Of a stretch of 64,000 bases of DNA, positions 28,601-47,748 are shown piece after piece; the first letter of the stretch is position 1, and every line of letters begins with the position of its first letter. Under the pieces are notes generated by a model. The model worked only from the letters and a program-made list of their open reading frames with translations. It was not told the origin of the DNA and searched no databases. Both the position numbers and the translations under genes were made by a program. The DNA lies in NCBI GenBank assembly GCA_963667705.1, contig OY763937.1, forward strand, positions 515,821 through 579,820, given 5' to 3'. This DNA is from Alphaproteobacteria bacterium. Its GTDB lineage: Bacteria; Pseudomonadota; Alphaproteobacteria; UBA828.

Positions 28601-28612
28601 GGCCCGGCTCCG

Positions 28613-29797: not shown

Positions 29798-30059
29798 CGC
29801 TCATTCCGAGTGCGTCTGACCAGGGCTCCACCGATCCGACTGCGCCAAGCGTACAGCCCGCGGCGCCGGACGTTGCTATCCGCCCCGCTTCCTTCGTATT
29901 CGACAGCAAATCACGTGAATTGTGAGGAGGCCGAAACCGTCGCTCCAAAGTTCAGCGACGGGTTGGCTGCCGATCGCCGCCTCGCTGGGCTTGACAGTCC
30001 TCAGTGTACCCTGCCTCCGTCGTGATTCCCTGTCAGCCAGGGCGGATAGGAGGCACACG

Positions 30060-31802
30060 TCAAGCCACCGCGGATCGCGCGACTTCATTCGCGCTTGAAT
30101 CCAGTGCGCGTTGGAAGGACTCCAGCGCATCCTCCAGCCCATCTCCCCGGTAGCGAAACTCATCGGGTATGGTCTGGTAGCGCGCCTGGGCTCGCTCGAA
30201 CGACGCCTGTCTCCGATTACTGAATTCCTCCGCCTCCGAAACGCGGTCAGGCACCGCCTCTGGGAACATCTGCAGCTCGCTCCTCAGGAAGCTCAGAAAG
30301 TCATGGATGGCGATCTGCTGACGGCCGATCCGCTCGAAGTGGTGACCCATGGCCGCCAGGTAGATCGCGTCCGGCAGCATGCGGGGGTAGTCCTTGGAGA
30401 CCTTGCCGATGAACTTCGAATAGGCATGAAGCTGCTTGGCGGAGAGACAACGGCGAACGCGCATGAAGGCTGCATCGATGTCGTTCCTGCTCCTGGGCTT
30501 TCGAAGATGCCCGACGGGCTTCAGATGCCTGAACAGAGTGAGGCAGCGGCCGAAGTAATTCTCCAGGGTCGGATCGTAGAGTGTGGCGAGCACCCGTTTG
30601 TATCCCTCGATCAGTGTCCTGTAGTCCATCTCCGGCTTGAAGTTGAGAGGCATGGCATTGGTTCCGATCGGCGCCTCCAGAAGCCGGTTTTCCGACTTCA
30701 TGCGCTCGTACATGTCCGTGCCCTTCAAGGCGGTCAACAGGTAGATGGGGGCTACGGGAATGCCGGTCTCCTGGATGAACTCGATCTGGGCATCGAACAC
30801 GCCCTCGTCATCGCCATCCAGACCCAGGATGAACCCGCCTTGGACCTGCATCCCACGCTGCTGGATTTTTCGGACGGCAGTGAAGATGTAGTTTTCCTGG
30901 TTCTTGCTGGTGTTCTGCGGCTTCTTGGTCTTGAGTAAGGCCTTGGGGTTCGGGGTCTCGATACCGACAAACACGGTATCGAAGCCGGCCTCGATCATCG
31001 CATCCATCATTGCGTCCATCAGCGCAAGATTCGCACTCGCTTCCGTGGTCAGGGTGAAGGGATATCCCTTGCTCTTTTGCCATTCGGCTATCGCCGGCAG
31101 CAGGTTCATGGCATCCCGCTTGTTGCCGATGAAGTTGTCGTCAACCAGAAAGACCGGGCCTCGCCACCCCAGACGGTAGAGGGAATCAAGCTCCTCCGAG
31201 ACCTGTTCCGGCGACTTGGTGCGAGGCACGCGGCCATAGAGCTTGATGATGTCGCAGAACTCACAGTCGAACGGACATCCCCGAGAGAACTGCACGCTCA
31301 TGGTGGCGTAGTTCGTCAAGTCGATGAGGTCGAAGCGGGGAACCGGCGTCAGGGTCACGTCCGGCTTCCGTGTTTCCCGATAGATTCTCTTGGCCGTGCC
31401 GGCTTCCAGGTCCCGAAGGAAATCCGCAAAGATTTCCTCGGCCTCGTCCAGCACGAAGTGGTCCACGCCTGCGATGTCCTGGTGAAAGGTGGTCGGATGA
31501 GGCCCGCCGGCCACCACTGGAACGCCCGCGTCGTTGCAGCGTTCGACCACGGCTCGCAGCGACAAGTGTTGCGTGATCATCGTGGACGTGAACGCAAGAT
31601 CCGCCCACTCAAGATCGGCGTCGCGCAGCGTACTCACGTTCATGTCCACCACGCGGAGCGCATAGCCGGGAGGGAACATCGCGGCGACGGTCAGAAGCCC
31701 GAGAGGTGGAAAGGTCGCCTTGAGCCCCGACATCTCGAGCGCGTGGTCGGCCCCCCAGAAGGTCGGCGGCTGCTCCGGGTAGACGAGCAGAGCGTTCGGC
31801 AT
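30060..31802 (-). CDS. B12-binding-domain radical SAM protein with a C-terminal DUF4070 (class B radical SAM, methyltransferase-like)
   Basis: CxxxCxxC motif (SRGCPFDCEFCD), an N-terminal cobalamin-binding-like domain, and a C-terminal extension typical of the HpnR/BchE-like group. Confidence 0.85.
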   Translation of the reverse strand: MPNALLVYPEQPPTFWGADHALEMSGLKATFPPLGLLTVAAMFPPGYALRVVDMNVSTLRDADLEWADLAFTSTMITQHLSLRAVVERCNDAGVPVVAGGPHPTTFHQDIAGVDHFVLDEAEEIFADFLRDLEAGTAKRIYRETRKPDVTLTPVPRFDLIDLTNYATMSVQFSRGCPFDCEFCDIIKLYGRVPRTKSPEQVSEELDSLYRLGWRGPVFLVDDNFIGNKRDAMNLLPAIAEWQKSKGYPFTLTTEASANLALMDAMMDAMIEAGFDTVFVGIETPNPKALLKTKKPQNTSKNQENYIFTAVRKIQQRGMQVQGGFILGLDGDDEGVFDAQIEFIQETGIPVAPIYLLTALKGTDMYERMKSENRLLEAPIGTNAMPLNFKPEMDYRTLIEGYKRVLATLYDPTLENYFGRCLTLFRHLKPVGHLRKPRSRNDIDAAFMRVRRCLSAKQLHAYSKFIGKVSKDYPRMLPDAIYLAAMGHHFERIGRQQIAIHDFLSFLRSELQMFPEAVPDRVSEAEEFSNRRQASFERAQARYQTIPDEFRYRGDGLEDALESFQRALDSSANEVARSAVA

Positions 31803-32403: not shown

Positions 32404-35400
32404 CTACATACTCAACCCTCGACTCCTGCGGAGGTGCTTTCCGAGTTTTCGGTCCCGCTTCTCCGCCTTCTCGCGCAGCTCGCGAAGTTTCTCGGGATCG
32501 TTGAGAATATGGGCGAATCCTTTCTGGTTCTCGTCCGGATCCAGGGGCTTGGCCGACGGCCTGTCGAGCGTGTGAGCGAACCCCCGTTGTTCCCGCTCGC
32601 CCTGCCGCCCGGGCCGCTGTTCAGACTTGCGGCGCGCTTCGAGAGTGTGAGCGAAGCCTTGCTTCTGCTTGGGCGTCGGCTCGGGCCGGGACTGTGATAC
32701 CTCCGGCTTTGCGGCGCGTTCGCGGTTGTCGCGGAACCGGTTGCGCAATTGCTCCACGGTGAGCTGTGCCCGGGACCTGCCGATGGTCATGGCGTCGAGG
32801 TAGGCGCCGTACCTGTCCTCGTTGGCGAGGACGGCTTCGCCGGTGGCGGCCAGCATCTCAGCCGCCTCGCGCCATTGGGGCCAGACGTCGAGACGGCTGA
32901 TGGGAAGGCCCTGCTCGCCAGCCTGAGCCTCAAGAACCTTGTACGCCTCGACATGCCGCTCCGCGGCGGCGAGATAGCTCTCGACCGTCTCGCGCGCCAC
33001 GGTCTCGTCGTCGTGATACGCGAGAAGCTCGTCGAGCACGCCGCGTGCGCGTTCGGTCAGCTCGGGATAATCGGCGAGCGCGCGGACGCGACGGATCAGC
33101 GCGTCGTATCCGTCCATCAGCAAGAGCGGAAGATCCGGTTGCTGGGAGCGTGCGACGAGATCGTTCCAGTCGCGCTGCAGCTCCCTGTAAAGCGTTCGCC
33201 AGTCGGGCGGGGGCTCGCGTTCCGGTCCGGGCGCTGCTGCTTCCGAAGTCCGGGGCGGCAGGGACTCTTCGGGAGCGGGTGCGGCGATCCCGGCCGCTAT
33301 GGTGTCGACGATCTGCGCTTCTTCGCGCGGTGCGTCCTGGCGCTTCGCGTCTTGGCGCTGCGTGTCCTGCCGCGCCCGGTGGGCGGCCCTGGTCGTCACC
33401 GACCTGAGGTACTTGCCGGCGCGCGTGTGCTGTCTGCCGAACTCCTCGATTTCGCCCCGGCCGATACCGGCGCGCTCGGCGAGCAGGCGCTCGAACACCT
33501 GCGGACGACGGCGGAACGATGCGGCCTGCTTCATCAGCGCACCGTGCCGGCCGAGAGTCTCTCGGAAAGCCGGCGTCAGCGCCACCGCGTCGCCGTCGGC
33601 GCGCGCACGCCGGCGAAGCTCGTCCCAGGCCGCCATCACTTGCGTGCGCTCCGCCGCGAACGCGTCCACGGCGGCGCCGTGGCGCCAGCCGTTGACGGCG
33701 TGACGGATTTCCTGGGCAATGCGCATGATCGCGTTGTCGTTCACGGCCACTGGTGTCTCTACTGTCGCGCGGCCCTCGGCGGATACTGCCTGCCCTTCGC
33801 CGGGTCCCTCGCGCACCGCACCCGGCTGTCGATTTGCCCCGTTCCCGACGCCGGCCCGTCCAAGCTGCGCTTGTTCGCTCGCTTCGCGCCATGCACCGTC
33901 GGTGACGTAATCGAGCGCCGCCTCCTTGGGTTGCGAGCGCGACCAGCGCTCGGCCAGATAGGCACGGATGTCGCTGTCCAGCACCGGCCGCTCGGCCTCG
34001 TCCTCGGGGAGGCTCTCGGCGATGTCGAAGACGATGGGCGAGCGGTTGACGTAGACGTCGATCCCCTCGCGGTGCCGTGTGGCTGCCGGATAGATCGTCT
34101 CCCGCGCCGGCCGGTCGTCAATCAGCAGGAAGGCGCGGTCCACCGTCAATCCCTGGGCGGACGCGATGGTCATGGCATAGCCGTAGTCGAGACGGATGTT
34201 GTCGTGGTAGTCGCGGATCTCGTCATGGCGGAACTCCACGCATCGCCCGTCGTCGGTGCGCGCGGTGATCTGAACCGATATCTCTGGTTCGGGCTCGCCC
34301 CTGTCCAGATGCGAAGCCCGCCCGGCGCGGCCACTGGCCAGCCGGTTGCGGGCTTTGCGCGTGACCGCCGCGCCTTCCACCTGCCGCGCCTCGATGTCCT
34401 CGACGGTGACCACCGTGCCGTTGAAGAGCTGCTTCTCCCACTGGGTGGCGCCGATGCGCAGCCGGTCGCCCACCGCGATCTCCAGCGGCTCGGTGACCCG
34501 CCCGTCGAGGTCGCGGCTCACCTCGATCACCGCGCGCTTGATGTCCGTCCGTTCTCCGAGCACGCGTTCCCGCATCAACCATGACAATGCGCGCGCCTCG
34601 GCCTTCGTGCGCGCCAGCACCACGGCGGATTTTTCGGGCTCGTCCTTCACGAGCCGCGCCCAGTCGTCGACCAGGCGCCTCAGCGTCTTCTCCTCGTCGT
34701 AGCAGAGATGGAGCCGGCCCCTGAGCCGCCACGCCTCGATCGCCTGCGCGGCTTCGCCGTCCCTGAGCGCTTCGGAGACCGCAACCTGCCACGGCGTGAA
34801 CAGCGGTTTGCGATCCATCGCCTCGTACTCGGCCATGATGGCGTCGCGTTCCTGCGAGCTCGTGAGTCCCGCCCTGAACCGCGCTTGCTCCGGCGTCTCC
34901 CTGTGGACATGGACGAGCACGTCCTCGAGGTCTGCTTTCTGGCGCCGGATGCGGTCGACGCGGACGCTGCCGGCGACGTCGCGGATCAACCTGAGCCCCG
35001 GACCCGCCTCGACCGGCTGCTGTTGCCTGGTGTCGCCGGCGAACACCACCTTGGCGCCGTGGCGCTCGCAGAGCTGCAGGATGTGATGCGCCTGGCGCGT
35101 GGACAGCATCCCTGCCTCGTCCACCACGATCAGGGTGTTGCGGTCGACCTCGAGTTGCCCCTTCGCCGCGAGCTTCAGCAGCTTGTCGACGCAGTAGGGA
35201 CGCGCGTCGCAGTCGTCTCCCAGCGCCACCGCCGTACGCCACGCGACGGCGGTGGGCACGATCTCGTAGCCGTGCTCCCTGTGCAGGTCGGTGATGGGCC
35301 GGAGCGTGGTGGTCTTGCCAGACCCCGCCGCGCCCTCGATCACGGCCACACGGCCGCCCATCGCGGTGGCGTGCCGGATCGCCAGAGACTGCTCCTGGCT

Positions 35401-36735
35401 CAAGGGATAGCCGCCGGCCAGGAGCGTCTCGACCTTGTGCCTGACCGCATCCTCCGGAATCCCGTGGCCGGTATCGGCGGCCATGGACGATGCCATGTCC
35501 TTCACCGCCTGTTCGAGGCCGAGGTTGTGGCGGGTGGAATAGATCTCGGTATGGGCCATGCCCGCCAGCGACTCCGCCGTGGGCTTCTTGGGCTCCAGCC
35601 GCTCGATCTCGGGGTTGCGGCGCAGCCGCTCGATGGCGGTCTTCAGAGCCTCGGGGCCGATCAGGCCGGCCGCCGCATTGGCTGCCGCCTCCACCATGTC
35701 GGGGCGCCGGAACACCGCCTCTTCCCGGGCCAGGTGGGCGGGAAGGTCGTCGAGCCGGGCGGTCAGCTCCCGGATTTCTTCTCGTCCGATCCCGGCCTCG
35801 CGGCCGGTCACGGACCGGATCAGCTCTTCGCGCTCGACAAAGCCCTGCGCCTCCTCGCGCCAGCGCCCGTGGCGTACCTCGGGATCGTTGTCGTGGGACT
35901 TGCCCGCCCGCGTCAGCTTGTTGACGCCCGCCATGCGCGAGGCGTTGCCGCGCGACGGAATGCCCAGCTCTCCGGCCTTGGCAACGATCGTCTTGCGCCG
36001 CTTCGACCAGAAGACCTGCAAGTCTTCCGGCATGCCCTCGATCCGGGTGAAGGCGGAATCGGGACCGTACTGCTCTATCCGCACGCCCAGACGCTCGCGC
36101 AGGTTCCAGGCCAGGGCGTTGCGGTAGACCGCGCCCGCAGCCTTGGCCCAGCTGTAGACCGGGTACTGGTGCATGGCCCGCCACTTGCCGTCCTCCTGCG
36201 TCCGGGCCGCGTTGAAGATGACGCAGTGGGTATGGAGCTGCGGGTCGTTCTCACGGCTGGTGCCGTGCTGGAACATCGCCGCCGCGATATCGGCAGGCAG
36301 GGCCCTGATCCGTCCCTCTCTGTCCCGGATCCGCGTATACGAGCAGTAGCGGAGCACCGTCTCTTCCAGGGCCACCCGGGCGGCGTCGTTGTGCGCCTGC
36401 TCGATCTCACCACGCAGCTCGGGATCGGCGACGGCCCAGAGCGCGGACACGCTCTTGTCGGCCGAGAAGGTCATGTCGAGTCCCGCCGAGCGGTTCTCGC
36501 TGCCTGCGTTCCTGGTGAGTTTCTGGGACCCGTCCGGCGCGAAGCCGTGGTAGAGCCGGTGGAAGTCGCTGCTGTCGACCTTGCCGCCGTTCTCGAGGCC
36601 GAGCAGGCCCGCAGGATTGAACCAAACCCCGTCCGGCTCCTCGCCGGCCGTGTAGTACTCGTTGGGATGGCGGAACGAGCGCTGGCTCTCCAGGTAATAG
36701 GCGGCAGACGCGGCCTGCGCGAGGGTGGCTACCAC
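32404..36735 (-). CDS. traA: Conjugative relaxase-helicase TraA (MobF/TrwC family, Ti-plasmid type)
   Basis: The N-terminal relaxase domain has histidine-triad-like HTHCVIFN and YY motifs. A central RecD-like helicase carries Walker A (GAAGSGKTT) and Walker B (VVDEAGM). 1443 aa. GTG start. Confidence 0.9.
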   Translation of the reverse strand: MVATLAQAASAAYYLESQRSFRHPNEYYTAGEEPDGVWFNPAGLLGLENGGKVDSSDFHRLYHGFAPDGSQKLTRNAGSENRSAGLDMTFSADKSVSALWAVADPELRGEIEQAHNDAARVALEETVLRYCSYTRIRDREGRIRALPADIAAAMFQHGTSRENDPQLHTHCVIFNAARTQEDGKWRAMHQYPVYSWAKAAGAVYRNALAWNLRERLGVRIEQYGPDSAFTRIEGMPEDLQVFWSKRRKTIVAKAGELGIPSRGNASRMAGVNKLTRAGKSHDNDPEVRHGRWREEAQGFVEREELIRSVTGREAGIGREEIRELTARLDDLPAHLAREEAVFRRPDMVEAAANAAAGLIGPEALKTAIERLRRNPEIERLEPKKPTAESLAGMAHTEIYSTRHNLGLEQAVKDMASSMAADTGHGIPEDAVRHKVETLLAGGYPLSQEQSLAIRHATAMGGRVAVIEGAAGSGKTTTLRPITDLHREHGYEIVPTAVAWRTAVALGDDCDARPYCVDKLLKLAAKGQLEVDRNTLIVVDEAGMLSTRQAHHILQLCERHGAKVVFAGDTRQQQPVEAGPGLRLIRDVAGSVRVDRIRRQKADLEDVLVHVHRETPEQARFRAGLTSSQERDAIMAEYEAMDRKPLFTPWQVAVSEALRDGEAAQAIEAWRLRGRLHLCYDEEKTLRRLVDDWARLVKDEPEKSAVVLARTKAEARALSWLMRERVLGERTDIKRAVIEVSRDLDGRVTEPLEIAVGDRLRIGATQWEKQLFNGTVVTVEDIEARQVEGAAVTRKARNRLASGRAGRASHLDRGEPEPEISVQITARTDDGRCVEFRHDEIRDYHDNIRLDYGYAMTIASAQGLTVDRAFLLIDDRPARETIYPAATRHREGIDVYVNRSPIVFDIAESLPEDEAERPVLDSDIRAYLAERWSRSQPKEAALDYVTDGAWREASEQAQLGRAGVGNGANRQPGAVREGPGEGQAVSAEGRATVETPVAVNDNAIMRIAQEIRHAVNGWRHGAAVDAFAAERTQVMAAWDELRRRARADGDAVALTPAFRETLGRHGALMKQAASFRRRPQVFERLLAERAGIGRGEIEEFGRQHTRAGKYLRSVTTRAAHRARQDTQRQDAKRQDAPREEAQIVDTIAAGIAAPAPEESLPPRTSEAAAPGPEREPPPDWRTLYRELQRDWNDLVARSQQPDLPLLLMDGYDALIRRVRALADYPELTERARGVLDELLAYHDDETVARETVESYLAAAERHVEAYKVLEAQAGEQGLPISRLDVWPQWREAAEMLAATGEAVLANEDRYGAYLDAMTIGRSRAQLTVEQLRNRFRDNRERAAKPEVSQSRPEPTPKQKQGFAHTLEARRKSEQRPGRQGEREQRGFAHTLDRPSAKPLDPDENQKGFAHILNDPEKLRELREKAEKRDRKLGKHLRRSRGLSM

Positions 36736-36913
36736 TGCGGGCCTCGCACAGCGTTTCGTCCGGGAGCGATCCAGCAGACGGGCGACGGCACCCCGTCCGG
36801 CACCGGCATGATGACCATCTCCATCGGAGGCGAATCTCTCATGAACGTCAGACCCTTACACGTATTGACGGAACATTGTGCTGTCCATGTCGTACCATAT
36901 AGGCTATGTATCC

Positions 36914-36946
36914 CGGCACAGCGCACCTTGGTGCATAGGTGTGCCG
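36914..36946. promoter_or_regulatory. Candidate oriT inverted repeat (CGGCACAGCGCACC/TTGGTGCATAGGTGTGCCG) in the traA-traC divergent intergenic region
   Basis: A nested palindrome in the region where Ti-type oriT sites lie, between divergent traA and traC. Confidence 0.3.
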
Positions 36947-37061
36947 AGTCACATACGCAAACATCAGTAGACCGTCAACGAAATTCAACATCGGAGCGAA
37001 GAATCGCGCCAGGCTTGCGGGCCGCACAAAGACGGAAAGCGCTCGCTTGCGTGCGGAAGCC

Positions 37062-37448
37062 ATGGCGGTCTTGACCGAGTGGAGGGCGCGGAGGATCATG
37101 CGCAACGCTCTGGAATCGCTAAACTTTGCGGACGGAGGAATCATGGTGGTCAGGCGCTACAACGAATCGGACATCGACTTCGAGGCCATCGATGCGGACC
37201 TTGCGAAGCTGGCGCCGCCAAAGCTGAGCCTGAAGGACGTGCTGGACCGCTTGCGGGAGCGCATGCTCGAGCAGCGGGCCAGGGGCGTGACGGTGGCTCA
37301 GATGCACGAGGTTCTGAAGGCGCGCGGCATCGAAATGGGTGAGCGCAGTCTCAAGGCGTTCCTCGACAAGGGAGAGCTGCCGGGACGCAAGGCGGCGAAG
37401 GTCGCGGCGCAGATCGGCGGCGGGGATTCGGAGGGAGATCCCTTCTGA
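37062..37448 (+). CDS. Small relaxosome accessory-like protein (TraC/TraD-position gene), divergent from traA
   Basis: Position and orientation match traC of Ti-type Dtr modules. No sequence motif recognised. The start is uncertain (ATG 37062 or 37098). Confidence 0.35.
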   Translation: MAVLTEWRARRIMRNALESLNFADGGIMVVRRYNESDIDFEAIDADLAKLAPPKLSLKDVLDRLRERMLEQRARGVTVAQMHEVLKARGIEMGERSLKAFLDKGELPGRKAAKVAAQIGGGDSEGDPF

Positions 37449-37824
37449 GCTGACGGCAGGTGATGGCGCGCAAGCGCCGAGCCGGATACCGGGACAGACG
37501 CATAGCGACGATTCAGAGCGTCGAGCCGGGGACGGCGATGCGTCGTGCGCAGCACGGCGAGCCGTGGGGCGGTGCCTGACACACACTCTATTGGAGATGA
37601 AGCAGGCGAGCGTTCGGCGAAGCCGCGCATGCGGCGAGCCGGGCGCGAGGCTGCGGCGGACCGAAGGGCAACAGGCGGCAACGGGAGAGCGCGAGCGGCG
37701 AAGCGAAGCCGCTTATGCGGCGAGCTCGCCGCGATGCGCGACGGCGGGCACGGAGCAGGAATAGAAGGCCGGTCCCTCGCCGAAGCAAAGGACCGACCTC
37801 GATGGCGAAGAGGAAAGCGCCGCC

Positions 37825-38760
37825 TCATGCGCGCCAGACCGGGATACCCATCTGCCGGGCCTTGTCCATCAGGTTGCCGGTGACGCCGCTGCCGGCGAAG
37901 GCGATCACGCCCTTGGGCAGCAGGTCGAGCAGCGCGTCGTTGCGGCGGAACGGGGCGGCGCGTCCGTGCGCCTTCCAGTCGGGGCGGACGATCACCTGGT
38001 CCACGCTGCGGGCCTCGGCCCACTTGGCCGCCACCGTCTCGATGCCGGGGGCGCCGCCGTGGACGAGGACCATGTTGCCGTGCTTGGCGCGGGTGCGGTC
38101 GAGGACGCTCCAGACGGCGGCGGGGTCTGTGACCTCCTTGCCGCCGGTGACCGCGACCAGGGTGCCCTCCGGCACGTGGCTGCTGATCTCCCGGTCCTTG
38201 CGGGCGCGCCTGTAGTCCCGCGCGTCGATCGCTGCCGAGGTCAGCGTTCCGGTCTTCGAGGTATGCGATCCGTTGCGGGGGCGCCACACGTCGCCGGTCT
38301 CAGCGCGGTAGGCGTCGGCGGCGGTTTCGCGCAGTCTCTCGAAGGCGTCCCTGCGGTCGCCGAGATTGCGCGCGCGGTCCGTGAGGAGCTGCAGCTCCCA
38401 GGCCTTCACCTCGGTCCCGTCCTGGGCGGTCTCGAGGTCCTTCATCTCCGGGGTAATGCGGTCCACCGCGCGGTCGAGGCGGCCGATCTGTGCATGGAAG
38501 CAGTTGACGATGCTCCAGAGGAGCGCCTCGCGCTCGTCGGCCATCTGGGTGCCGTCCACGGTGATGCCTTCCACCATGATGCGGATGGCCTCGCCGAGCG
38601 CGCCGGTGGCGTCCTCTTCGTCCCAGATCTCCCGGCTGTCGATCTCACCGCGCTCAGGCGCTGTGCCGTAGAGTGCTGCGTTCTCGCAGATGGCGGCGGT
38701 CTGTGAAGCGGTTGCGGTGTCCTGGTTCGTGTCGATCATGTCGACCTCCCTTTCGTTCAT
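37825..38760 (-). CDS. Hypothetical protein with a C-terminal SLOG/DUF2493-like nucleotide-binding-fold domain, recalled as common on Rhizobiales ICEs and plasmids
   Basis: The C-terminal region LVAVTGG...VLVHGGAPG...IAFAGSGVTGNLM resembles YspA/DUF2493-type SLOG domains. Confidence 0.4.
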   Translation of the reverse strand: MNEREVDMIDTNQDTATASQTAAICENAALYGTAPERGEIDSREIWDEEDATGALGEAIRIMVEGITVDGTQMADEREALLWSIVNCFHAQIGRLDRAVDRITPEMKDLETAQDGTEVKAWELQLLTDRARNLGDRRDAFERLRETAADAYRAETGDVWRPRNGSHTSKTGTLTSAAIDARDYRRARKDREISSHVPEGTLVAVTGGKEVTDPAAVWSVLDRTRAKHGNMVLVHGGAPGIETVAAKWAEARSVDQVIVRPDWKAHGRAAPFRRNDALLDLLPKGVIAFAGSGVTGNLMDKARQMGIPVWRA

Positions 38761-38824
38761 CCTCCGGGGCGGTGCGCCCCGTCGTGATGCGTTGTTGGGA
38801 CACGCGCCCGCAGGGCCGGCACCT

Positions 38825-39095
38825 TCTCCTAGAGTTTCTTGGACCGGATTCGGTGCGGAAGATGCCCGATTTGGTGCGGAAGTCGGCGTTCTCAGGGTCT
38901 GGGAGGGCCGGCGCGCCGCGTTGCCGGCTTGCCGCGTTACGAGTAGGCCTTCTTCAGGACTCTAGCGCCGGCCCGACACGCCGGCCCCGCGCTGAGGGGC
39001 CGGCGTGCCCCACGCGAGGCGTTGGAGGGTTCAGGCAAGCCGACTTCACGGTCGGGCATCTTCACGGCCGGTCCTAGAAACTCTTGGAGAAGGCC
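38825..39095. repeat. Imperfect palindrome of about 270 bp with roughly 60-bp arms and internal GGTGCGGAAG direct repeats
   Basis: Left arm CCTTCTCCTAGAGTTTCTTGGACCGG...GGTGCGGAAGATGCCCGA...GGTGCGGAAGTCGGCG matches the reverse complement of the right arm (CGACTTCACGGTCGGGCATCTTCACGG...CCGGTCCTAGAAACTCTTGGAGAAGG). Confidence 0.6.
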
Positions 39096-39362
39096 GGAAC
39101 GGAGCGCAGCGGAGTGGAGGACCCGCAGGGTTGTCGGACCGAGGACGCGTGGCACAATGGCGGATCACGACGGGGTACGACCTCCCTCTCGACACGCTCG
39201 ACATCCCTTGTTGTTTCTTTCGCTGCCAGCGCATTTGCGGGATGCGGCGGGGAGGGGAACAGGGACTCCGATCTAGCTGCATGAAAGGAGGGAGCGGCCT
39301 GCCGTCGGGGTATGACGGAGGCTCGCTCCCAAGGTCGGAAAGGAGAATAGCGGTGCGCGCCG

Positions 39363-39731
39363 TCACCGCGCACTGGAGAACGCGGGATGCACCGGCGGCG
39401 AGGTCCAGGGCACGAGGTCGCGGTCGACCAGCATGCGCGCGACGGTTGGCTTGACGGCGTCGCGGTCGTCGAGCAAGCGGGGACCCCGATGGTCATCGAA
39501 CAGGTGAAGAGCATAGTAGAACCGGCCCGGCTTCGGGCTGGCGATGTCGGGGCGCTTGCTGACCGTTCCCACCGTCTGATCGAAGACCACGATATCGCAT
39601 TCATGGTCGAGGCGCCAGCGGAAGCGGATGTCACGGATCGAGAAGTCGCAGCTCGACATGGCGTGTCTCCGGGGAGGAAACGGGAGCGCGAGCGCGCGCT
39701 TGGGCGCGCCGCGCCCCGGTCGTTGACACAT
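39363..39731 (-). CDS. Hypothetical small protein
   Basis: ORF with reasonable composition in the conjugation-module region. No motif recognised. Confidence 0.3.
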   Translation of the reverse strand: MCQRPGRGAPKRALALPFPPRRHAMSSCDFSIRDIRFRWRLDHECDIVVFDQTVGTVSKRPDIASPKPGRFYYALHLFDDHRGPRLLDDRDAVKPTVARMLVDRDLVPWTSPPVHPAFSSAR

Positions 39732-39800
39732 GAGGAAGGGCCGGTCCCGAGACCCTGGGGAAGGGCGGGACCGGCCCGGAGACGGGAGGGAGGAACCCGT

Positions 39801-40253
39801 CTAGAAAGGTACCGTGCCGCTGTCGAGTGCGTCGGTAGCGGCGGCCGCAACCGGCGCCGCTGCCTCACCGTTGGGGGCCTTGGCACCGCTGCCGTTGTGC
39901 GTCGCCGGGCGCTCCAGGAACTGGATCCGTGAGCCCGGAACGAGGATGATCTCGGTCGAGTAGCGGTCGCTGTCCTCGCCCTCCTTGCGCCACTTCCGGG
40001 TCTGCAGCTTGCCCGCGACGTAGACCAGCCGCCCCTTCTTCGCGTGCTTCTCCAGCATGTCGATCAGGCCGCTCTGGAAGCTGACGACCCTGTGCCACTC
40101 CGTCCTGTCGACCCTCTGGCCGGTCTTGTCGATGAAGGACTCGTCGGTCGCTACCGACATGTTGGCGACGCGCCCGCCGGAGGCGAGGCTGTTGATGGCG
40201 ACGTCGGCGCCCAGGCGCCCGATGATCTGCGCGGAGTTCAATCCGAAGGACAT
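39801..40253 (-). CDS. ssb: Single-stranded DNA-binding protein (SSB)
   Basis: OB-fold N-terminus (IIGRLGADV...WHRVVSF), a Gly/Ala-rich tail, an acidic C-terminal end, and an AGGAGA RBS 6 nt upstream of the ATG at 40253. Confidence 0.6.
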   Translation of the reverse strand: MSFGLNSAQIIGRLGADVAINSLASGGRVANMSVATDESFIDKTGQRVDRTEWHRVVSFQSGLIDMLEKHAKKGRLVYVAGKLQTRKWRKEGEDSDRYSTEIILVPGSRIQFLERPATHNGSGAKAPNGEAAAPVAAAATDALDSGTVPF

Positions 40254-40617
40254 TGTTCGTCTCCTCATATCCAGGTTTCTGACGATGGGTGACGAGCGGA
40301 CCGGGGACACTCTCTCGACCCCCTCCCTGCTCACTCTTCGCGAAGCCCTTCTCGAACTCTCCTCTGCCGCCTGCCTCGACGGTCACGGGACAGGCGCGGA
40401 GCTTGCGGACCTCGCGGACCGTACGGATGACGGCGCAGGATGCCGTGAAGGCCGAGTGGCGTCGGTTTACGACGGCGCGGCGCCGGGGTCGGAGGAACGG
40501 GTGGAAGCGGCCGCACCCTCGCGGCGCGAAGCGCTGCACGTGGACACGGGGTGGGGCGCGGTCTCGGTGGCCGATTACCGCGTCCCCCCAGCAGCAGCCC
40601 CGGCGCCGGCGAGCGGG

Positions 40618-41427
40618 TCAGGACCAGGCCGCGTAGCGCGTCATCGCGGAGGTGTCGGACATGATCTCCACCTGGTCGTGTCCGAGCCCGGCGAAGACCA
40701 GGCAGGCGGCCACCTCGGCCTCTGAGTCGAAGCTGCCGTGACAGACTCCGGTGTCGATCTCGATCACCGTGAAGCGCGCGGGCCAGGCCGGCAGCCCGCG
40801 GTGCTCGGACGAGCGCACGTAGCTGCGCCGCGCGCAGGGCTCGCATCTGGATGCGTTCCCGGCCGGGGCGCTGCATTCGGTGCACAACTTCCTGGCGCGC
40901 CGACGCCAATATATCTTCCGGGCGTAATCCCTGCGCGACGGGCGGCCCGACTGTAGCCTGGCGCAGGCCTCGCAGCGCGCGGCGCCATCGGGCACGGGAT
41001 CGCCGCACGCGCCACATCGGCCATCGAAGCGGCGTGCAGCCCAGCGCTGCTTGTCGCCGTCGTTTCGCCTTGACCGGCAAGGCTCGCAGCGGCTGCTCCC
41101 TTCGGTGGGCGGGCGAACGCCGCACCGGACGCAGGCGCCGGCGGCGTGGCGCTCGTGGTAGCGCCTCTTGCTGCCGGCGCGGGCGTTGCGGCGCTTGGCC
41201 TCTGCGCGCTTGCCGCCGTAGAGGGCACCGGAGGCCTTGGCCCGGGCGTATCTGGCGCGGTCCGCCCTGCGCCTCCTCTCGCCGCATTCGGCACAGAGGC
41301 GGCGATCGGCCTCGGGCGGGGCTGCTCCGCACTTGGGGCATGTCCCCGCTGCGATCCTCTCCTCAGCCAGGCGCCTGTCCCGCTCGCGCTTGCAGCGGCG
41401 CCGCTTCTCCGGATCCCTGGCCGGCAT
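40618..41427 (-). CDS. Hypothetical protein with four tandem CxxC...CxxC zinc-ribbon repeats and a C-terminal globular region
   Basis: Repeats CPKCG..CAECG, CVRCG..CEPC, CGACG..CEAC and CTECS..CEPC, each followed by an Arg-rich spacer. GGAGGA RBS 7 nt before the ATG at 41427. Confidence 0.5.
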   Translation of the reverse strand: MPARDPEKRRRCKRERDRRLAEERIAAGTCPKCGAAPPEADRRLCAECGERRRRADRARYARAKASGALYGGKRAEAKRRNARAGSKRRYHERHAAGACVRCGVRPPTEGSSRCEPCRSRRNDGDKQRWAARRFDGRCGACGDPVPDGAARCEACARLQSGRPSRRDYARKIYWRRRARKLCTECSAPAGNASRCEPCARRSYVRSSEHRGLPAWPARFTVIEIDTGVCHGSFDSEAEVAACLVFAGLGHDQVEIMSDTSAMTRYAAWS

Positions 41428-41513
41428 CCGACGATCCTCCGTGCCATGGTGCAGGTGACGGGGATGGGGGGGCGGCCGGAGCGCCCGTATCGGACGCCCC
41501 CGCCGAATGCCTG

Positions 41514-41840
41514 TCAGCGCTGGCGCGACATATGACCCCAGACAGCGAGGCAACCCCAGTATTGCACCCCGCTGTCTTCGAGGTTCACGGCGGTGCAGAC
41601 GATGATCTCGTCACGCGCGGGCCGCATCTGCTTGACGTTGCTCAGGCTGGTGACCGTGTTCCGGGACCGGCGCCTCTTCTTCCCCCGCGCGGGGGGCGTG
41701 GCGATCGGCACGGGACTGATCTCGCCGTCGGCGGACGAGTGGAAGCGCTCGACGACATACTTGTCGCCCTCGAGGCCGCGCCCGAAAATATGAACGAGAA
41801 ATGTTTCGGTGTTGCCGCGCTTCGCGCCGCCGATCTGCAT
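41514..41840 (-). CDS. Hypothetical small protein (108 aa), upstream of and co-oriented with the zinc-ribbon protein
   Basis: GGAGGG RBS directly upstream of the ATG at 41840. The longer ORF upstream of this start has junk-like composition. Confidence 0.4.
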   Translation of the reverse strand: MQIGGAKRGNTETFLVHIFGRGLEGDKYVVERFHSSADGEISPVPIATPPARGKKRRRSRNTVTSLSNVKQMRPARDEIIVCTAVNLEDSGVQYWGCLAVWGHMSRQR

Positions 41841-42998
41841 GACTCCCTCCGCCAGGTGGATGGTTGGAAGCTGCGGGACCGCCTCTCTCCCCGAGCGCCG
41901 CCTCCGCCGCGCTCCGTCCCGGCCTTCCTCTTCCTCCCGAGGAAGCTCAAGCGGCGGGTCGCAGAGAAAAAATGCGGGTGCCGCTTCGGCGCATGTCGTC
42001 TCTTTTCGCGTATGCCGCGGGGTGCAGGATTGGCCCGAACGAAGGTGCCTTTCAATTGCGAACGTTCCGCCTACGTTCGCCTGTATGGATACTCTCGATC
42101 GCTCCATCCGTGACTTGAATCCGGCTCGTCCGAAGCGCTCCGGGCTCTCAGGCCGGCGCTTCGGGGTGCTCGGCGAGCCCGCCTTCGCCGCCTTGCTCAT
42201 GCACGCGCCCACAAGCCCGGATGCTCGGGGCGAACCGTCCCGCGGGTACGGATCATGGCTCATGCGCGGCAGATTGTGTCTGCCGATGTTCTCGTTTTGT
42301 AAGTGGACGAATTTGCGAACGGCAAATTCGTCCATTCCCGGGCCTTCGAGGTGCCGCTCCAATGCACCGCGACTGTCGCGGGCAGAGGACGGCACTGGCA
42401 TGGGCAAGACGCGCAACGGCTGGCTGACCACGGAGCAGGCGGCGGCGCACGTGGCGTCGAGCTCGCGCACCCCTGAGCGCGATCAGGCGCGGCGCGGCGG
42501 GCCAGCCTGTGTCTGCTGTTGCGAGCGCGTGCACGAGCTGCGGGACGACCTCGACAGCCGCATCGCGGAGGACGAGCGCCCCGCCGCCGCCGACTCGAAG
42601 GACGATTGCGGCCGCGACGGGAACGAAACCCGAAAGGCAAAAAAAATAATTCGGTGTATGGAAGATCCTTAAAGCGTCGACATGGGCGGACATGAGCGGA
42701 CATAAGCGGACATATGAGGGCAGCAAGCTATTGACATCGAACGGGTTCCTCCGGGTGTCACCCTTGAATCAATTGGTTCCCCTGACCATTTTCAACGACC
42801 GGACGGAGGTGTGGGGGCGATGTTAAGCGCGGCAAGTCCCGATTACATGAACGAGCTTCTCACCGGTCTCTTTGTTGGTGGCGCCGAGAGACCGGGATCG
42901 CAGGCGGTGGGGGCTGGAGGCGTCGCGCGGACCGGGCACAAGCCGTGCCGCTGCCGACCGATTGAGGCGCCATTCTCGAATGAGGGGAGATACACACA

Positions 42999-44975
42999 AT
43001 GAGAACCGTCGAACTGTCCATTTGCGCCCTCCTGCTCGCCGCAGGCGGAGGCTGGGCGATCTGGCTCACAACCGGCTACAGGCCGGACGACATCGCCGCC
43101 GCCGGTCTCGCGCTCGCGGCCGCGGCGTCGCTGGTGACCTTCTTCGTGACCGACCGCAAGCGCTCCGGAGACTGGATCCGCTTCGGCATCTACAGCGCGG
43201 GCCTGTCGGTGTCGGTGGCCTCGTTCTGGACCGCCATCGTGCGCCCCTTGGGGAACGTCCGGTGGCCCGATGGTGCCCTGGACTGGCTCCTTGGGCTCGA
43301 AGGGGCCGGGCTGGTCCTGCCGGTGCTCTCGATACCCGCCGTCATGGTGCTGGCCCTGCTCTGGGGCGGGGCGGCGGTCCACGTGATCAGGCATCCCGGC
43401 GGCGGTGAGCGGCGCCGCCGGGCGCGGTCCGACCTGCACGGCAGGGCCGCGCTGCTTGACCGGCGCTCCATGCGCCGGCTGACGAAGGGACGGGGCATCC
43501 TGCTCGGACAGTCGGGGGCGCGCAGGAACGACAGGTTGATCGCCTGGCCCCTCGAGGGCTCGGCCATCACCGTCGCCCCGCCCCGCGCAGGCAAGGGCGC
43601 GCTCATCGCGCTCAACCTGCTCTCGCCCGAGGGGCGCGGCTTCGACGGCTCCACCGTCACCATCGACCCGCGCGGCGAGCTCTGGTGCATCGCCTCGCGG
43701 CGGCGCCGCGAGATGGGCCGGCGCACCGTGCTGGTCGATCCCTTCGGCGTGGTGAACAAGCACAAGGAGGATTTCGGGGCGTACCACCTGCCGGAGGTGG
43801 GGAACTCCAGGTACAACCCGCTCTCCTTCATCCGCGATGACGAGGGCCTCGCGGTGCGCGACATCAACGTGCTGCTCGACGCCCTGCTGACGCCGCCCAG
43901 AGCGGGCGGGCCCGAGAACAGCAGGCACTTCTACGAGTCCGCCCGCGCCATCATCGCCGGATACATCGCCTGGGTGCGCTTCCGCGAGCCGCGCGAGTTC
44001 CAGACCCTGGGCATGGTCCATCGCATGCTCTCCATGGGTCTGGAGGAGCGGGAGGAGTTCTCGGAGCTGGTACGGCGCACGGAGCGCTTCGCCGGCGGGC
44101 TCGCGCACATCGCCGTCGAGCGCCAGGCGCAGGTGGGCAAGGAGGAAGGCGGGTCCAACTTCAGCACCGTCGCCAACCAGCTTTCCTTCCTCAACTACCC
44201 GGAGCTGCTCGCCGGCACCGACGGGACGGACTTCGATCCGCTGATGCTGGCCGACGGCGACACCGACCTGTTCGTGGTCGTGCCGGAGGATACCGTGGAG
44301 CACGTCAAGGGCTGGCTCCGCCTCTGGGTCGCGATCCCCAACGCCATCGCGAGCATCACGCCGCTTGAGCGCGACATGCTGATCGTGATCGACGAGATGC
44401 CGAGGCTCGGCTACCTGAAGCCGGTCATGGACGGCTACACGATGGCCGCCGGCAAGGGGGTGCACTTCTGGTGCTTCGCCCAGTCGATCTCGGCGCTGGA
44501 CTCGACCTGGGGCAAGGAGCACCGCAAGACCCTGCTGGACCTCGCCGAGGTGGTTCAGATCCTGGGCTTCCCGCGCACCGACGCGGAGGGGGCGGAGGCG
44601 ATGTCGAAGGCCATCGGCACCGCCACCTATGAGGGGCGGACCGAGAGCCGCTCGGGCACCGTCTCCGACAGCGGCGGCGTTGCAGGCAACGCGCAGTGGC
44701 AGGCAGGAGAATCCTTCGGCCTCGTGCGCGAGCGTCTGGCGACGCCGGACGAGCTGATGACGCTGGCACCGGACCGGCAGTACGTGATCGGTGCGGCCAA
44801 GGACATCAAGCGCGACGCGCTCTATCTCCATCACGCGCGTTACTGGGAGCGGCCGGACACGTACTACCTTGCCGATCCCAACCCCTACGTGCTGCGCAAG
44901 GAGCGGGCGGCGGCCAACGCCGCTGCGGGCAGTCGATCGAGCCGGCCGATGACGGCCGCAGGAGGCATGCGATGA
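42999..44975 (+). CDS. traG: Type IV coupling protein TraG/VirD4 family (conjugal transfer ATPase)
   Basis: N-terminal TM helices, Walker A (PPRAGKGA), Walker B (LIVIDEMPRLG), and TraG/VirD4-like length and architecture. Confidence 0.9.
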   Translation: MRTVELSICALLLAAGGGWAIWLTTGYRPDDIAAAGLALAAAASLVTFFVTDRKRSGDWIRFGIYSAGLSVSVASFWTAIVRPLGNVRWPDGALDWLLGLEGAGLVLPVLSIPAVMVLALLWGGAAVHVIRHPGGGERRRRARSDLHGRAALLDRRSMRRLTKGRGILLGQSGARRNDRLIAWPLEGSAITVAPPRAGKGALIALNLLSPEGRGFDGSTVTIDPRGELWCIASRRRREMGRRTVLVDPFGVVNKHKEDFGAYHLPEVGNSRYNPLSFIRDDEGLAVRDINVLLDALLTPPRAGGPENSRHFYESARAIIAGYIAWVRFREPREFQTLGMVHRMLSMGLEEREEFSELVRRTERFAGGLAHIAVERQAQVGKEEGGSNFSTVANQLSFLNYPELLAGTDGTDFDPLMLADGDTDLFVVVPEDTVEHVKGWLRLWVAIPNAIASITPLERDMLIVIDEMPRLGYLKPVMDGYTMAAGKGVHFWCFAQSISALDSTWGKEHRKTLLDLAEVVQILGFPRTDAEGAEAMSKAIGTATYEGRTESRSGTVSDSGGVAGNAQWQAGESFGLVRERLATPDELMTLAPDRQYVIGAAKDIKRDALYLHHARYWERPDTYYLADPNPYVLRKERAAANAAAGSRSSRPMTAAGGMR

Positions 44976-45712
44976 CGACGAAAAGGCCAAGGATGCCGAA
45001 CGGCATCGACCGGGACGCGGATCGTGAGACGCGGCCCGTGAACGGGCAGCGGCACGAGGCGTGGAGAGAATCCCGCGGCGGCAATGCCGGGACGGACGAA
45101 GCTGCGGGCGCGGCCAGGCCCGGTTCGCGCAGCAACCCGCGGCAACCGGCATCCTGCTTCGGGGTGATTTTCGCCGCGACGGGTAAGCGCGTCGGCGATG
45201 TGCGGGTACGCAGCGCAATGCCGCATATGGAGCGCTACTTCCGGGGGCTGCTCGACGAGCAGGGACGGCTTGGACTGCCGCCGCCGCAGGCGGCGCAGGA
45301 AACCGCGGTCGAGCCGGCAGAGGCGCCCGGTGGGGGCGCCGCCTGTATGGAAGCGCCGCCCGAGCCGCCGCGGGACGAGGCTCATGAGCCCTGTGAGGCG
45401 GCGGTGAGTGCGACGGCGGAGTTGAAGGCCGTGCTCCTGACCTTCAAGGCCGACTTCGTGCGCTGGACCCGGAACGAGAGGCGGGGCCGCAGGCGCCGGG
45501 CGGGTCTCATGATGGCCGCCGGCTTCCCCGCCTGTCTCCTTCTCGGCCTTCTGATCCAGGTGCAGTTCGAGGTCGTTCCCCCGCACGACCCCACCAGCGG
45601 CTGGGGCAAGCACATCCAGGACACCTACGGCCGGACCATCGGCAACTGCGAGATCGAGGCGATGCTGACGAAAAGCGAGGTCGATTGTCTGCTGACGGTG
45701 GGTCGGCCGTGA
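44972..45712 (+). CDS. Hypothetical protein, translationally coupled to traG (ATGA overlap)
   Basis: The ATG overlaps the traG stop. Contains a C-terminal hydrophobic segment. Confidence 0.35.
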   Translation: MTTKRPRMPNGIDRDADRETRPVNGQRHEAWRESRGGNAGTDEAAGAARPGSRSNPRQPASCFGVIFAATGKRVGDVRVRSAMPHMERYFRGLLDEQGRLGLPPPQAAQETAVEPAEAPGGGAACMEAPPEPPRDEAHEPCEAAVSATAELKAVLLTFKADFVRWTRNERRGRRRRAGLMMAAGFPACLLLGLLIQVQFEVVPPHDPTSGWGKHIQDTYGRTIGNCEIEAMLTKSEVDCLLTVGRP

Positions 45713-45778
45713 CGGCGGCGGAGAGAACGCGGCGGGGAATGCGGCCCCGTCCCGAACGAAACAGAGGGAGATATTGCC

Positions 45779-45991
45779 ATGAGCATCGGTAAGGTGCGCG
45801 AGCTGCTGCGCCGCGAGGAGGTCGAGAAGCGCTACAGCGTCTCGCGAAGCTGGATCTACAGTCAGATGCGCGCCGGGCGCTTCCCGGAGCCGATCAGGAT
45901 CAGCCTGCGCGCCGTGAGATGGCGGGTGGTTGACCTCGACAAGTGGGCCAAGGAAAGGCCTGTCGCGCACGGAGAGATCGGCCAGCGCTGA
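45779..45991 (+). CDS. alpA: AlpA-family helix-turn-helix regulator (prophage CP4-57 type, excisionase-like)
   Basis: 70 aa with the VSRSWIYSQMRAGRFPEPIRIS motif characteristic of AlpA/MerR-like phage regulatory proteins. Confidence 0.8.
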   Translation: MSIGKVRELLRREEVEKRYSVSRSWIYSQMRAGRFPEPIRISLRAVRWRVVDLDKWAKERPVAHGEIGQR

Positions 45992-46983
45992 TCGACGCCG
46001 GCGATGTGCTCACCTGCGCAAACGATCGAATAAGCGCGATCGATCCGGGTAATCGTCGACAATCCGACCCGGTGCGTTCGCATGTTCAGGGAAAAGGACT
46101 CGCACGGTCGGCGCCTCACGCGCGGTGGCAGCGCCCGAATTCGGTACGAGGCCAACCCGCAAGGTCCTCCATGTTCCGATCCGCCTTGTTGGGCGGAATG
46201 TGGGGCCGATCGCCGGCAAGACGAGAAAGCGGCGCCTACGCAGTGAGTTATCCGAGGCGAAGGCTTCCACTCCCATAACCATCGGATAAGCCCCAATGAT
46301 GCTGCACGGCGTCCGACGCACGACTCAAGGCGGAGGTAGTGGTTAGCCTATTCCCTCCTGGAAGACTTTCACCCGCTACCCAACTGCCAGTTAGCTTCGT
46401 GCACAGACTTCCTGACCCCGTGCTGGAAGGTTACGGCCTTGCCCATTAGCCATGATATTGAAGTCGAGGGCATATCTCCTGCCATCAATCTCCGTGATCA
46501 AATGCGGCGCGGCTGCCACTTCCAATTTTGAAACGATGGGACATTTCGAGCCGGAGCCGCTCCAGGTAACCGGAAAGCCGCAGAAATCGACGCTTTCCTC
46601 TCGTCTGGCAAGCGGGCGCCTTATGCAAACCGTGTCATCTCAAATTGGCAGAGTTCAGAAAGTCTGAGGTTATCGGCGTTGCCGCACTCGTCGTCATCTT
46701 CCAACGCTGGTGAGTCGATCACCGCAGTCTATGGAGATTGACTAGACCGTCACCTCAATGTATTGACCCGGTGAGTCAATTTAGAGCGCTTGGCATTATC
46801 AGCTTGCACTTGCGGGACACAGCAATAGGATGCAGGCGACGGAAACGTACAGATTATCGGTGACCGTGAATGGGCATCCACCCGCGGTAACCCGGCCAGT
46901 TCCTGTACTACTTCGAATTTGCGTTGAGTCTGCACAAGATGGCGCGTCGGTGAGCCTTTGCAGCGTAAGGGAGACAAGTCATT

Positions 46984-47397: not shown

Positions 47398-47748
47398 TCG
47401 GTTGATCAGAGCCACAGGTCAGTACTCTCCCAGCGCATCGGTGGCAGGGTGCGCCATCCTCGTCCTGTTTGCCGGGCCCGCAGAGTGCCGCGGTTTTTCA
47501 CCGTTGCAAGCGATACTCGCGGGCCCCTTCGGTGAGGCATTCCGAGGCACCGCGTTGTCCCGAGGAATCCATGAACGCACATACACGCCCCTTAGCTGGG
47601 GCTGGGGAGGGGTTCGGCTTGCCCCGACGGTCGTACGGTGGCGAAGGCAGGAGGAAGCGGCGGATCGGTTCGTCCGCGACGACACGCGTCACCTTGGGAG
47701 ATCGGCAACGGCCAAGAAGGCTTTTCACCGATGCGTAAGCTGGTCGGA

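Follow-up and report, generated by a model that had tools for sequence, protein, structure and literature searches.

The window analyzed here is a 64-kb stretch of contig OY763937.1 (positions 515,821 to 579,820 of the forward strand, GenBank assembly GCA_963667705.1, Alphaproteobacteria bacterium), and it contains an integrated island that we take to extend from ~9600 to 53439, the whole 43.8-kb element lying inside the window. We consider it likely that this island is an integrative mobilizable element (IME) that encodes a relaxase and a coupling protein of its own and is probably assisted by integrative and conjugative elements (ICEs) that carry a mating-pair formation (MPF) system of the MPF_I class, and an IME, as already put forward in the original prediction, is the best explanation that we have for it. 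At the level of sequence we find a recombinase of its own with flanking attachment (att) repeats, an origin of transfer (oriT) and a relaxase of its own, and no VirB4 or MPF genes. An element with a relaxase and without VirB4 is operationally defined as mobilizable (PMC3158045), and the window element counts as such because the former is present and the latter absent. This lifestyle is in itself known and ordinary; the family is undescribed.

A scan of one genome per species returned 59 traA loci at 59-90% identity, with up to seven in a single metagenome-assembled genome (MAG) and nearly all in MAGs labelled Alphaproteobacteria, Rhodospirillales or Defluviicoccus. A recurrent order is found, alpA-orf246-traG, then a leading block, orf101 and traA, with int beyond traA, and because it recurs in dozens of related loci the set of components in the window is no chance pattern. 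Some of these loci are pore-less, like the window, and others (ICE-type) carry a type IV secretion system (T4SS). The traA genes of multi-copy MAGs are 66-87% identical to that of the window, examples being the CBDBLP010000001-4 contigs and OZ243972.1 with CBDCCI010000002.1.

Transfer genes and the candidate origin of transfer

The genes and sites concerned, with the evidence for each, are as follows.

32404-36735, minus strand: traA, MOBF relaxase with SF1B helicase, 1443 amino acids (TrwC 229 bits, AAA_30/AAA_19, TraI_hel_assoc_N)
36923-36934 and 36935-36943, plus strand: candidate oriT core, hairpin GCAC-cttg-GTGC and the adjoining ATAGGTGTG (conserved block)
Around the predicted nick: predicted TraA target sequence, 5'-GCACCTTGGTGCATAGGTGTGCCGAG-3'
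37143-37448, plus strand: orf101, divergent small gene, 101 amino acids (reading frame opens at 36939, true ATG at 37143 behind GGAGG)
37825-38760, minus strand: YAcAr/SLOG protein (Pfam)
39363-39731, minus strand: orf122 (leading-region block)
39801-40334, minus strand: SSB (Pfam)
40618-41553, minus strand: Zn-ribbon protein (leading-region block)
41514-42470, minus strand: orf318, uncertain gene call (leading-region block)
42999-44975, plus strand: traG, VirD4-family coupling protein (PF02534 136.9 bits vs 20.1, PF12696 TraG-D_C, PF10412 TrwB_AAD_bind)
44972-45712, plus strand: orf246, membrane protein with a transmembrane helix, overlapping the traG stop codon
45779-45991, plus strand: AlpA-family helix-turn-helix protein (PF05930, 45 bits)

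The relaxase-helicase, divergent small gene, SSB, TraG/VirD4 protein and AlpA that had been named in the original prediction were all confirmed in place, the small gene from its counterparts in relatives and the others by Pfam and NCBIfam. TraA consists of a TrwC relaxase domain (residues 10-297) followed by helicase domains and a long C-terminal extension, it scores well above the cutoffs of the MobF models (NF041492, 214 bits vs 100; PF08751, 229 bits vs 25), and its sequence matches the PDB structures of F/R1 TraI and R388 TrwC. In the translation are AAYY at residues 11-14 and EYY at 26-28 (YY...YY), as well as an HxxxxxxDPQLHTH-type motif, HGTSRENDPQLHTH; judging by eye against TrwC and TraI, we take these to be the tyrosine pairs and the three-histidine metal site (HxDxxxxHxH-type). 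The catalytic tyrosines, the histidine triad and the P-loops of both helicase and coupling protein are all present. TraA thus shares with R388 TrwC and F TraI the TrwC fold, the paired tyrosines, the three-histidine motif and the fusion to an SF1B helicase, and differs in that the nearest plasmid relaxases, annotated MobF, are only 26-31% identical to it, in its ~700 extra C-terminal residues, in a partner gene that is not TrwA/TraY-like, and in belonging to an integrated element with no linked T4SS.

TraG has the T4SS-DNA_transf domain, the P-loop (PPRAGKG) and the N-terminal membrane anchor (hydrophobic segments at residues 3-50 and 97-131) of a VirD4/TraG coupling protein, and its PDB match is TrwB. 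The nearest plasmid coupling proteins are ~30% identical to it, and the nearest plasmids are uninformative on the type of helper, the MobF region of a Methylobacterium plasmid having no T4SS and the sphingomonad plasmid pSY2 only MobQ and a coupling protein.

The palindromic region between traA and orf101, earlier proposed as an oriT candidate, has held up well on comparison. It contains nested inverted repeats (36905-36955) and is 45% identical across 26 relatives, with the oriT core as the sole invariant block. In a pattern search of all fetched loci (a 4-6-bp stem and 4-nt loop, directly followed by A(T/C)AGGTGT(G/A)) the hairpin and 9-mer were found once per locus in 47 related loci and in the window, always ~200 nt upstream of traA and on the opposite strand. 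Six covarying stems occur: GCAC/GTGC, GCAAGC/GCTTGC, GCGGTC/GACCGC, GCATGC, GCTAGC and GCAGTC/GACTGC. The geometry in the window equals the layout of the R388 TrwC nic site, in which a five-base arm and 4-nt loop precede nine bases that are single-stranded, and a purine comes right after the nick (PMC4176350). On this conservation and likeness the intergenic hairpin is a well-supported candidate for oriT, with the nick predicted at or adjoining GGTGT|G. The latter sequence resembles the F nick. The type of hairpin (GCAC or GCAAGC stem) was also considered as a marker of pore-less versus ICE-type loci and was rejected, L064 and L007 being counter-examples.

With this polarity the plus strand would be the one transferred, the right-hand block entering first and traA last. 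Genes 37825-42470 form a predicted leading-region block (Pfam, and synteny across many loci), and YAcAr, orf122, SSB and the Zn-ribbon gene would be transcribable from the incoming strand toward nic, by analogy with plasmid leading regions. The general plan is shared with R388 and F: a short hairpin with 4-nt loop, 8-9 conserved nucleotides, the nick (here predicted) and a purine, a relaxase gene that adjoins oriT and is predicted to enter last, and ssb in the leading region.

Selection on the transfer genes was gauged from dN/dS. For traA the value is 0.22 against the pore-less locus L036, for traG 0.27 against the pore-less L060 (range 0.27-0.34), and for YAcAr and orf101 it is 0.31 and 0.15, both against L060. 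These ratios indicate that the transfer genes of the pore-less copies are under purifying selection. orf246 gives 0.67-0.86 against L060 and L063, and it is 37% identical to an ICE-type copy, compared with 71% for traG and 75% for alpA. It is thus the much faster-evolving gene, although translationally coupled to traG. Counterparts of 235-256 amino acids are called in all relatives and it has no family match; a role in entry exclusion or compatibility determination is speculative. AlpA, a candidate excisionase or activator, always follows traG-orf246, in T4SS-less and ICE-type relatives alike. In the window it and the P4-type integrase lie at opposite ends of the element, both within the 15-nt direct repeat.

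Counterparts of orf101 in L060, L063 and L064 are called at 101-116 amino acids and are nearly identical in sequence. No match to it was found in Pfam, NCBIfam, PADLOC, PHROG or PDB, it is not TrwA/TraY-like by any search made, and a single-sequence AlphaFold2 model (pLDDT 70, five helices) gave no fold match at E<=0.001. For orf122, orf246, orf318, the Zn-ribbon protein, orf181, orf233, orf164 and orf532 nothing was found in Pfam, NCBIfam, PADLOC, PHROGs or PDB. Upstream of traG (41514-42998) the minus-strand orf318 overlaps a plus-strand reading frame of 287 amino acids (41809-42672), neither with a family match, and at the position of orf318 in L060 and L064 the gene caller favours the plus strand.

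Integrase, candidate attachment sites and ends of the element

The window belongs to a high-GC alphaproteobacterial chromosome (~72%), into which, by the GC profile, DNA of 55-69% GC is set between ~9.6 and 53.5 kb; real genes were told apart from shadow reading frames by codon-position GC. The features that define the ends are listed here.

9600-9614, plus strand: candidate attL core CGGAGCGAGCGTCCG, direct repeat with the copy at 53425
9758-10981, plus strand: P4-type tyrosine integrase, int (Arm-DNA-bind_3, Phage_int_M, Phage_integrase; reading frame opens at 9668, likely ATG 9758)
46102-46279, plus strand: conserved right arm of the backbone, with motif CATGTTCCGATCCGCCTTGTTGGGCGGAATGTGGGGC and homology ending at ...CCACTCCCAT
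53425-53439, plus strand: candidate attR core CGGAGCGAGCGCCCG, direct repeat with the copy at 9600

Searches for att sites by k-mers and local alignment gave only chance-level matches until the right boundary was re-placed at ~53.5 kb; a fine GC profile puts it at ~53.50-53.56 kb, and the true start of the M20 peptidase gene is the ATG at 53561. The 15-mer CGGAGCGAGCG(Y)CCG has exactly two exact copies in the window (9600 and 53425), both on the plus strand and both coinciding with a GC-shift boundary, where 0.01 would be expected by chance for a 15-nt repeat. We take it to be the recombination core because the same core adjoins int in three relatives, L029, L032 and L049, whose integrases, encoded downstream of traA, are 86-90% identical to that of the window, because in L032 a further direct copy lies 4.75 kb beyond int (18/18 identical to the right copy of the window), and because a conserved int-proximal 11-mer, GTGGGACGCAA, recurs at 53359 near the right end. 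Two earlier att candidates were abandoned, a CC(A)CTCCCAT likeness at 9709/46270 that is not kept in other elements carrying this integrase, and a weak match at 52893-52922 that is not significant and is part of an 82-nt block common to the window and L063.

In L032 (17285-22086) the two direct CGGAGCGAGCG copies flank a 4.75-kb islet with genes for 611 and 917 amino acids just outside int, an arrangement that suggests tandem accretion of islets at the attachment sequence. Right of the attR core, window positions 53429-53457 recur as two tandem 29-nt copies, inverted, at L049:14782-14845, ~300 nt outside the element. This recurrence hints that the integrase is directed to a dispersed repeat and not to a unique gene. 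Neither end of the element has a tRNA or any other RNA gene, nor a tRNA beside int in L029, L032 or L049, so that integration at the 3' end of a tRNA or tmRNA gene, as for P4-like elements, is not seen here; the sole tRNA of the window, Gly-GCC (59767-59841), is 6 kb away from the island and does not serve as its integration site.

Both flanks are housekeeping genes. On the left are glutamate dehydrogenase, SDR, dioxygenase, OmpA-like, amidase, DUF6635 and O-methyltransferase genes, and on the right M20 peptidase, gamma-glutamyltranspeptidase, amidohydrolase, DEAD-box helicase, glutathione synthetase and RsmI genes. With both element ends in the window and such genes on either side, the possibility that T4SS genes lie outside the window and yet inside the element, named beforehand as what would overturn the IME reading, is excluded. 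The right arm is kept in L060, L063, L020 and L069, with backbone homology to the window stopping at 46274-46279, and in L069 the housekeeping gene metH lies within ~460 nt of alpA. The main uncertainty on exactly what moves is the status of the stretch from 46.28 to 53.42 kb, which we describe as variable cargo or a tandem islet because backbone homology stops at this point.

Absence of a pore and the T4SS-bearing relatives

No T4SS or MPF family, VirB/Trb or other, was found by Pfam among all sizeable open reading frames (ORFs) of the window, and a tblastn search with 11 MPF_I queries taken from related ICEs detected no remnants there, in agreement with the earlier statement that VirB/Trb genes are missing from the element. 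DotA/TraY, DotH/TraN, DotI, TraO, TraQ, TraW and a VirB4-class ATPase are thus absent from the window and present in the ICE-type relatives (L065-L067, L030, L031, L044 and L048). Within the element P-loops occur only in TraA, TraG and the helicase, and no other ORF is of the size of a VirB4 ATPase. It could be argued that the element is self-transmissible by way of an unrecognised, minimal or divergent pore built from orf318, the Zn-ribbon protein, orf246, orf122, orf181, orf233 and orf164, since eight ORFs in or beside the backbone could be assigned to no family and Pfam hardly picks up even the MPF_I proteins of the relatives. We regard this as very improbable: the relatives' own proteins were used as queries and found nothing, the candidates are short and partly of low complexity, with one ambiguous gene call, and the VirB4 ATPase for which there is no ORF of suitable size is required by every known single-stranded DNA conjugation system (PMC3158045).

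The helper that we favour for the IME comes from the ICE-type loci. In L065, L066 and L067 TraG homologues 66-71% identical to that of the window close a long co-directional T4SS operon. Its genes encode DotI/IcmL (PF11393), DotH/IcmK (PF12293), a TraO/DotG-like protein, two TraQ-like proteins, a protein of 1027-1040 amino acids with a GxPGxGKS P-loop and a weak VirB4_CagE match, SSB, a TraW-like protein and DotA/TraY (TIGR04346, 236 bits vs a cutoff of 100), and then come traG, a gene for 200-256 amino acids and alpA. No PDB sequence match was obtained for the 1027-1040-residue protein, a candidate TraU/DotO. Judged by these family matches the operon is one of IncI1/Dot-Icm (MPF_I) gene order. 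The adjacency of traY and traG is found in L030, L031, L044 and L048 as well. The loci themselves (L065:1-12747, L066:1-12849 and L067:1-15145) combine a MOBF relaxase with an MPF_I operon that has an embedded ssb and ends in a VirD4-type traG.

Comparison with IncI1 R64/ColIb-P9 and Legionella Dot/Icm makes the relation clear. The T4SS-bearing relatives have DotI/IcmL, DotH/IcmK (TraN), TraO/DotG-, TraQ- and TraW-like proteins and DotA/TraY in R64 order; the differences are that the window lacks the MPF_I genes and that this family combines a MOBF relaxase with a VirD4/TraG-type protein, where R64 has NikB (MOBP) as its relaxase and the DotL-like TrbC for coupling. The pairing of MOBF with MPF_I seems unusual and we found no paper on it; a literature search on this family in sponge symbionts and on ICEs with MOBF and MPF_I found nothing specific.

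Aligned with the window, the ICE-type loci become homologous in their DNA only from 42992-43023 onward, right at the start codon of traG. Together with the lack of any MPF remnant this leads us to view the window element as the ICE architecture minus its pore operon and, as far as homology can tell, it is a T4SS-less branch of the ICE family. Complete pore-less backbones are also found in L036/L063, L060, L064 and L069, and L009 has the same junction upstream of traG; in all there are at least 6 pore-less copies in at least 5 MAGs, with traG 76-94% identical. Window-type L009 and ICE-type L044 both come from records of a single MAG, isolate 09f1bc1b, and an MPF_I operon lies ~19 kb from L007 on one contig.

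A break exactly at the start of traG in an otherwise ICE-like architecture is also what would be left by a decaying MPF_I ICE whose pore genes were deleted, an immobile remnant inherited vertically as junk, and the distribution of TraY considered below can be read in the same way. We think that such a remnant is unlikely. All transfer genes are intact with their catalytic motifs, the pore-less copies have diverged and yet have dN/dS values of 0.15-0.34, oriT is kept with compensatory changes, the att repeats are exact, and each copy has different cargo and a different genomic context, implying continued movement. The covariation in oriT, the exact repeats and the varied cargo and insertion contexts argue, on comparative grounds, for a living lineage and not a one-off wreck.

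The original prediction had described the module as Ti-type and expected a VirB/Trb helper, and neither label stands. The case for a Ti-plasmid-type DNA-transfer module dependent on a VirB/Trb (MPF_T) system is that TIGR02768 TraA_Ti gives the best NCBIfam E-value for TraA, that the host is an alphaproteobacterium, a group in which MPF_T is common, and that MOBF relaxases are often paired with MPF_T or MPF_F. There are likenesses to the Ti arrangement (traAFBH/oriT/traCDG), namely a large TraA relaxase-helicase with a TraA_Ti-like helicase part, TraG, and divergent transcription at oriT. The TraA_Ti match, however, covers residues 313-602 only, the helicase part, at 244 bits vs a cutoff of 590, TIGR02767 TraG-Ti gives 52.7 vs 686, and the nuclease domain is TrwC/MobF and not MobA/MobL, so that the window relaxase is MOBF whereas that of Ti is MOBQ. 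There is no traC, traD, traF, traB or traH, only orf101 diverges from traA, and traG is not at oriT but 6 kb off behind a block of opposite orientation. Since, moreover, every T4SS-bearing relative that we found, including the nearest ones, uses IncI1/Dot-Icm-like MPF_I genes, dependence on a VirB/Trb system appears quite unlikely.

Several points weigh against an IME helped by MPF_I ICEs and have to be set beside the evidence for it. None of the 120 TraY matches listed, out of 158, lies on a chromosome of the nearest pore-less relatives (contigs of 5.62, 6.17 and 1.17 Mb), and because of this co-residence with an MPF_I ICE is not universal. A TraG of ~70% identity is assumed to be compatible with the ICE pore. 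The end of the conserved backbone, at 46279, falls 7 kb short of the outer repeat, so that the mobile unit may be shorter or the right-hand part a separate tandem islet. Finally, orf101 is a candidate relaxosome accessory factor or regulator, a role that is assigned from its position.

Cargo, proposed route of transfer and significance

The remaining genes of the island lie in three regions.

12008-12874 and ~12871-14430, plus strand: AEP PrimPol and SF2 helicase (PF22548 AEP-TOTE, 335 bits; ResIII/DEAD)
15381-31802, minus strand: cargo of reductase-sulfotransferase, polyketide synthase (PKS), RND pump, HlyD adaptor and B12 radical-SAM genes (Pfam)
46280-53424, minus strand: low-GC variable cargo or tandem islet (GC profile; TbpB_B_D)

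The PrimPol-helicase pair adjoins int in the window and is kept at 85-87% in L036, downstream of traA; it also matches PADLOC (CRISPR-associated PrimPol model) and a PHROG helicase, and may be either a conflict system or a module that replicates the element after excision. The region from 15381 to 31802 has no match in the related loci and for this reason we assign it to element-specific cargo between int and traA. In the stretch 15381-25192 the PKS is a single-module, fully reducing KS-AT-DH-ER-KR-ACP enzyme of 2351 amino acids, and beside it are a fused thioester-reductase-like (NAD_binding_4) and sulfotransferase protein, then the RND/HlyD pump and the B12 radical-SAM enzyme.

The lipoprotein islet, which holds TbpB-like lipoprotein genes (47749-50106 and 50206-51111) and orf532 (51261-52859), lies inside the att repeats and is absent from the relatives, which hold other cargo there: what follows alpA differs from one relative to the next and includes WYL/AAA, Mrr, UvrD/PD-(D/E)XK and transposase genes. 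The suggestion that the cargo can be mobilised in trans therefore fares differently for its two parts. It stands for the PKS operon by virtue of its position between int and traA, and is less certain for the lipoprotein islet, which lies beyond the backbone end at 46279 and could be a tandem islet. The stretch 46280-53424 has the lowest GC of the window (55-60%) and a composition unlike both host and backbone; two of its proteins end in TbpB-type beta-barrel lobes and its 532-residue protein is Gly/Asp-rich. The 82-nt block mentioned above (window 52881-52962, 95% identical to L063:14943-15023) lies in both loci directly upstream of a gene for ~530 amino acids, the two proteins being non-homologous (BLASTP E=0.23), and looks like a shared promoter/leader or a cassette junction. 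The flanks of multi-copy traA loci are often of defence type, with Cas3-like helicases, type I restriction-modification, AbiE, SIR2, Mrr, HepT/MNT and a Druantia DruA-like domain fused to a transposase.

In the route that we propose, Int and AlpA would excise the island as a circle, TraA, perhaps with orf101, would bind the plus-strand hairpin and nick GGTGT|G, and TraG would bring TraA with its bound DNA to an MPF_I pore supplied by a related ICE, one that shares the cell or is just arriving. The plus strand would then enter the recipient with the YAcAr-SSB block first, transcribable from the incoming strand, and traA last, after which TraA would reclose the strand, the PrimPol-helicase and host enzymes would make its complement and Int would insert the circle into a copy of the core. 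This would carry along the PKS-sulfotransferase operon and, if the outer repeat is used, the lipoprotein islet.

CloDF13-type mobilizable plasmids are the plasmid analogue of such a design. Among IMEs the use of a foreign pore by an element with its own relaxase and coupling protein is a recognised strategy (strategy I of Guedon et al. 2017, PMC5704250). The window element shares with these IMEs an integrase and excision factor, its own oriT, relaxase and coupling protein, and the lack of MPF genes with a pore supplied in trans; it differs in its host, an alphaproteobacterium, and in having a 1443-residue MOBF relaxase-helicase. The 2017 review knew of no canonical IME with a relaxase of the MobF or MobH type and of none from Proteobacteria, and those few that encoded a VirD4 themselves had MobC relaxases (PMC5704250). 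The present element adds the combination of MOBF and its own VirD4, which is new relative to the IMEs characterised by 2017.

A broader picture is possible, and we offer it only tentatively. The loci may form an undescribed superfamily of MOBF/MPF_I elements that integrate into the genomes of uncultured Rhodospirillales-like Alphaproteobacteria, and its pore-less derivatives would have shed the Dot/Icm-like operon and kept relaxase, oriT and coupling protein. Several diverged copies could then settle in one genome by way of a short dispersed core, not a tRNA, parasitise the ICE members and act as the main carriers of PKS and defence cargo, with orf246 perhaps setting exclusion or compatibility groups.

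The analysis corrects the label of the module, from Ti-type with VirB/Trb to a MOBF family associated with MPF_I, and this changes the co-resident system to be sought. It leads to predictions of the helper, which should be a family member of the ICE type with an IncI/Dot-Icm-like system, of the nick site and of the attachment core, and it documents a transition from ICE to IME with a clean breakpoint at the coupling-protein gene. For the organisms concerned it would provide a concrete route by which a PKS-sulfotransferase operon, and genes for surface lipoproteins, may pass between uncultured high-GC alphaproteobacteria.

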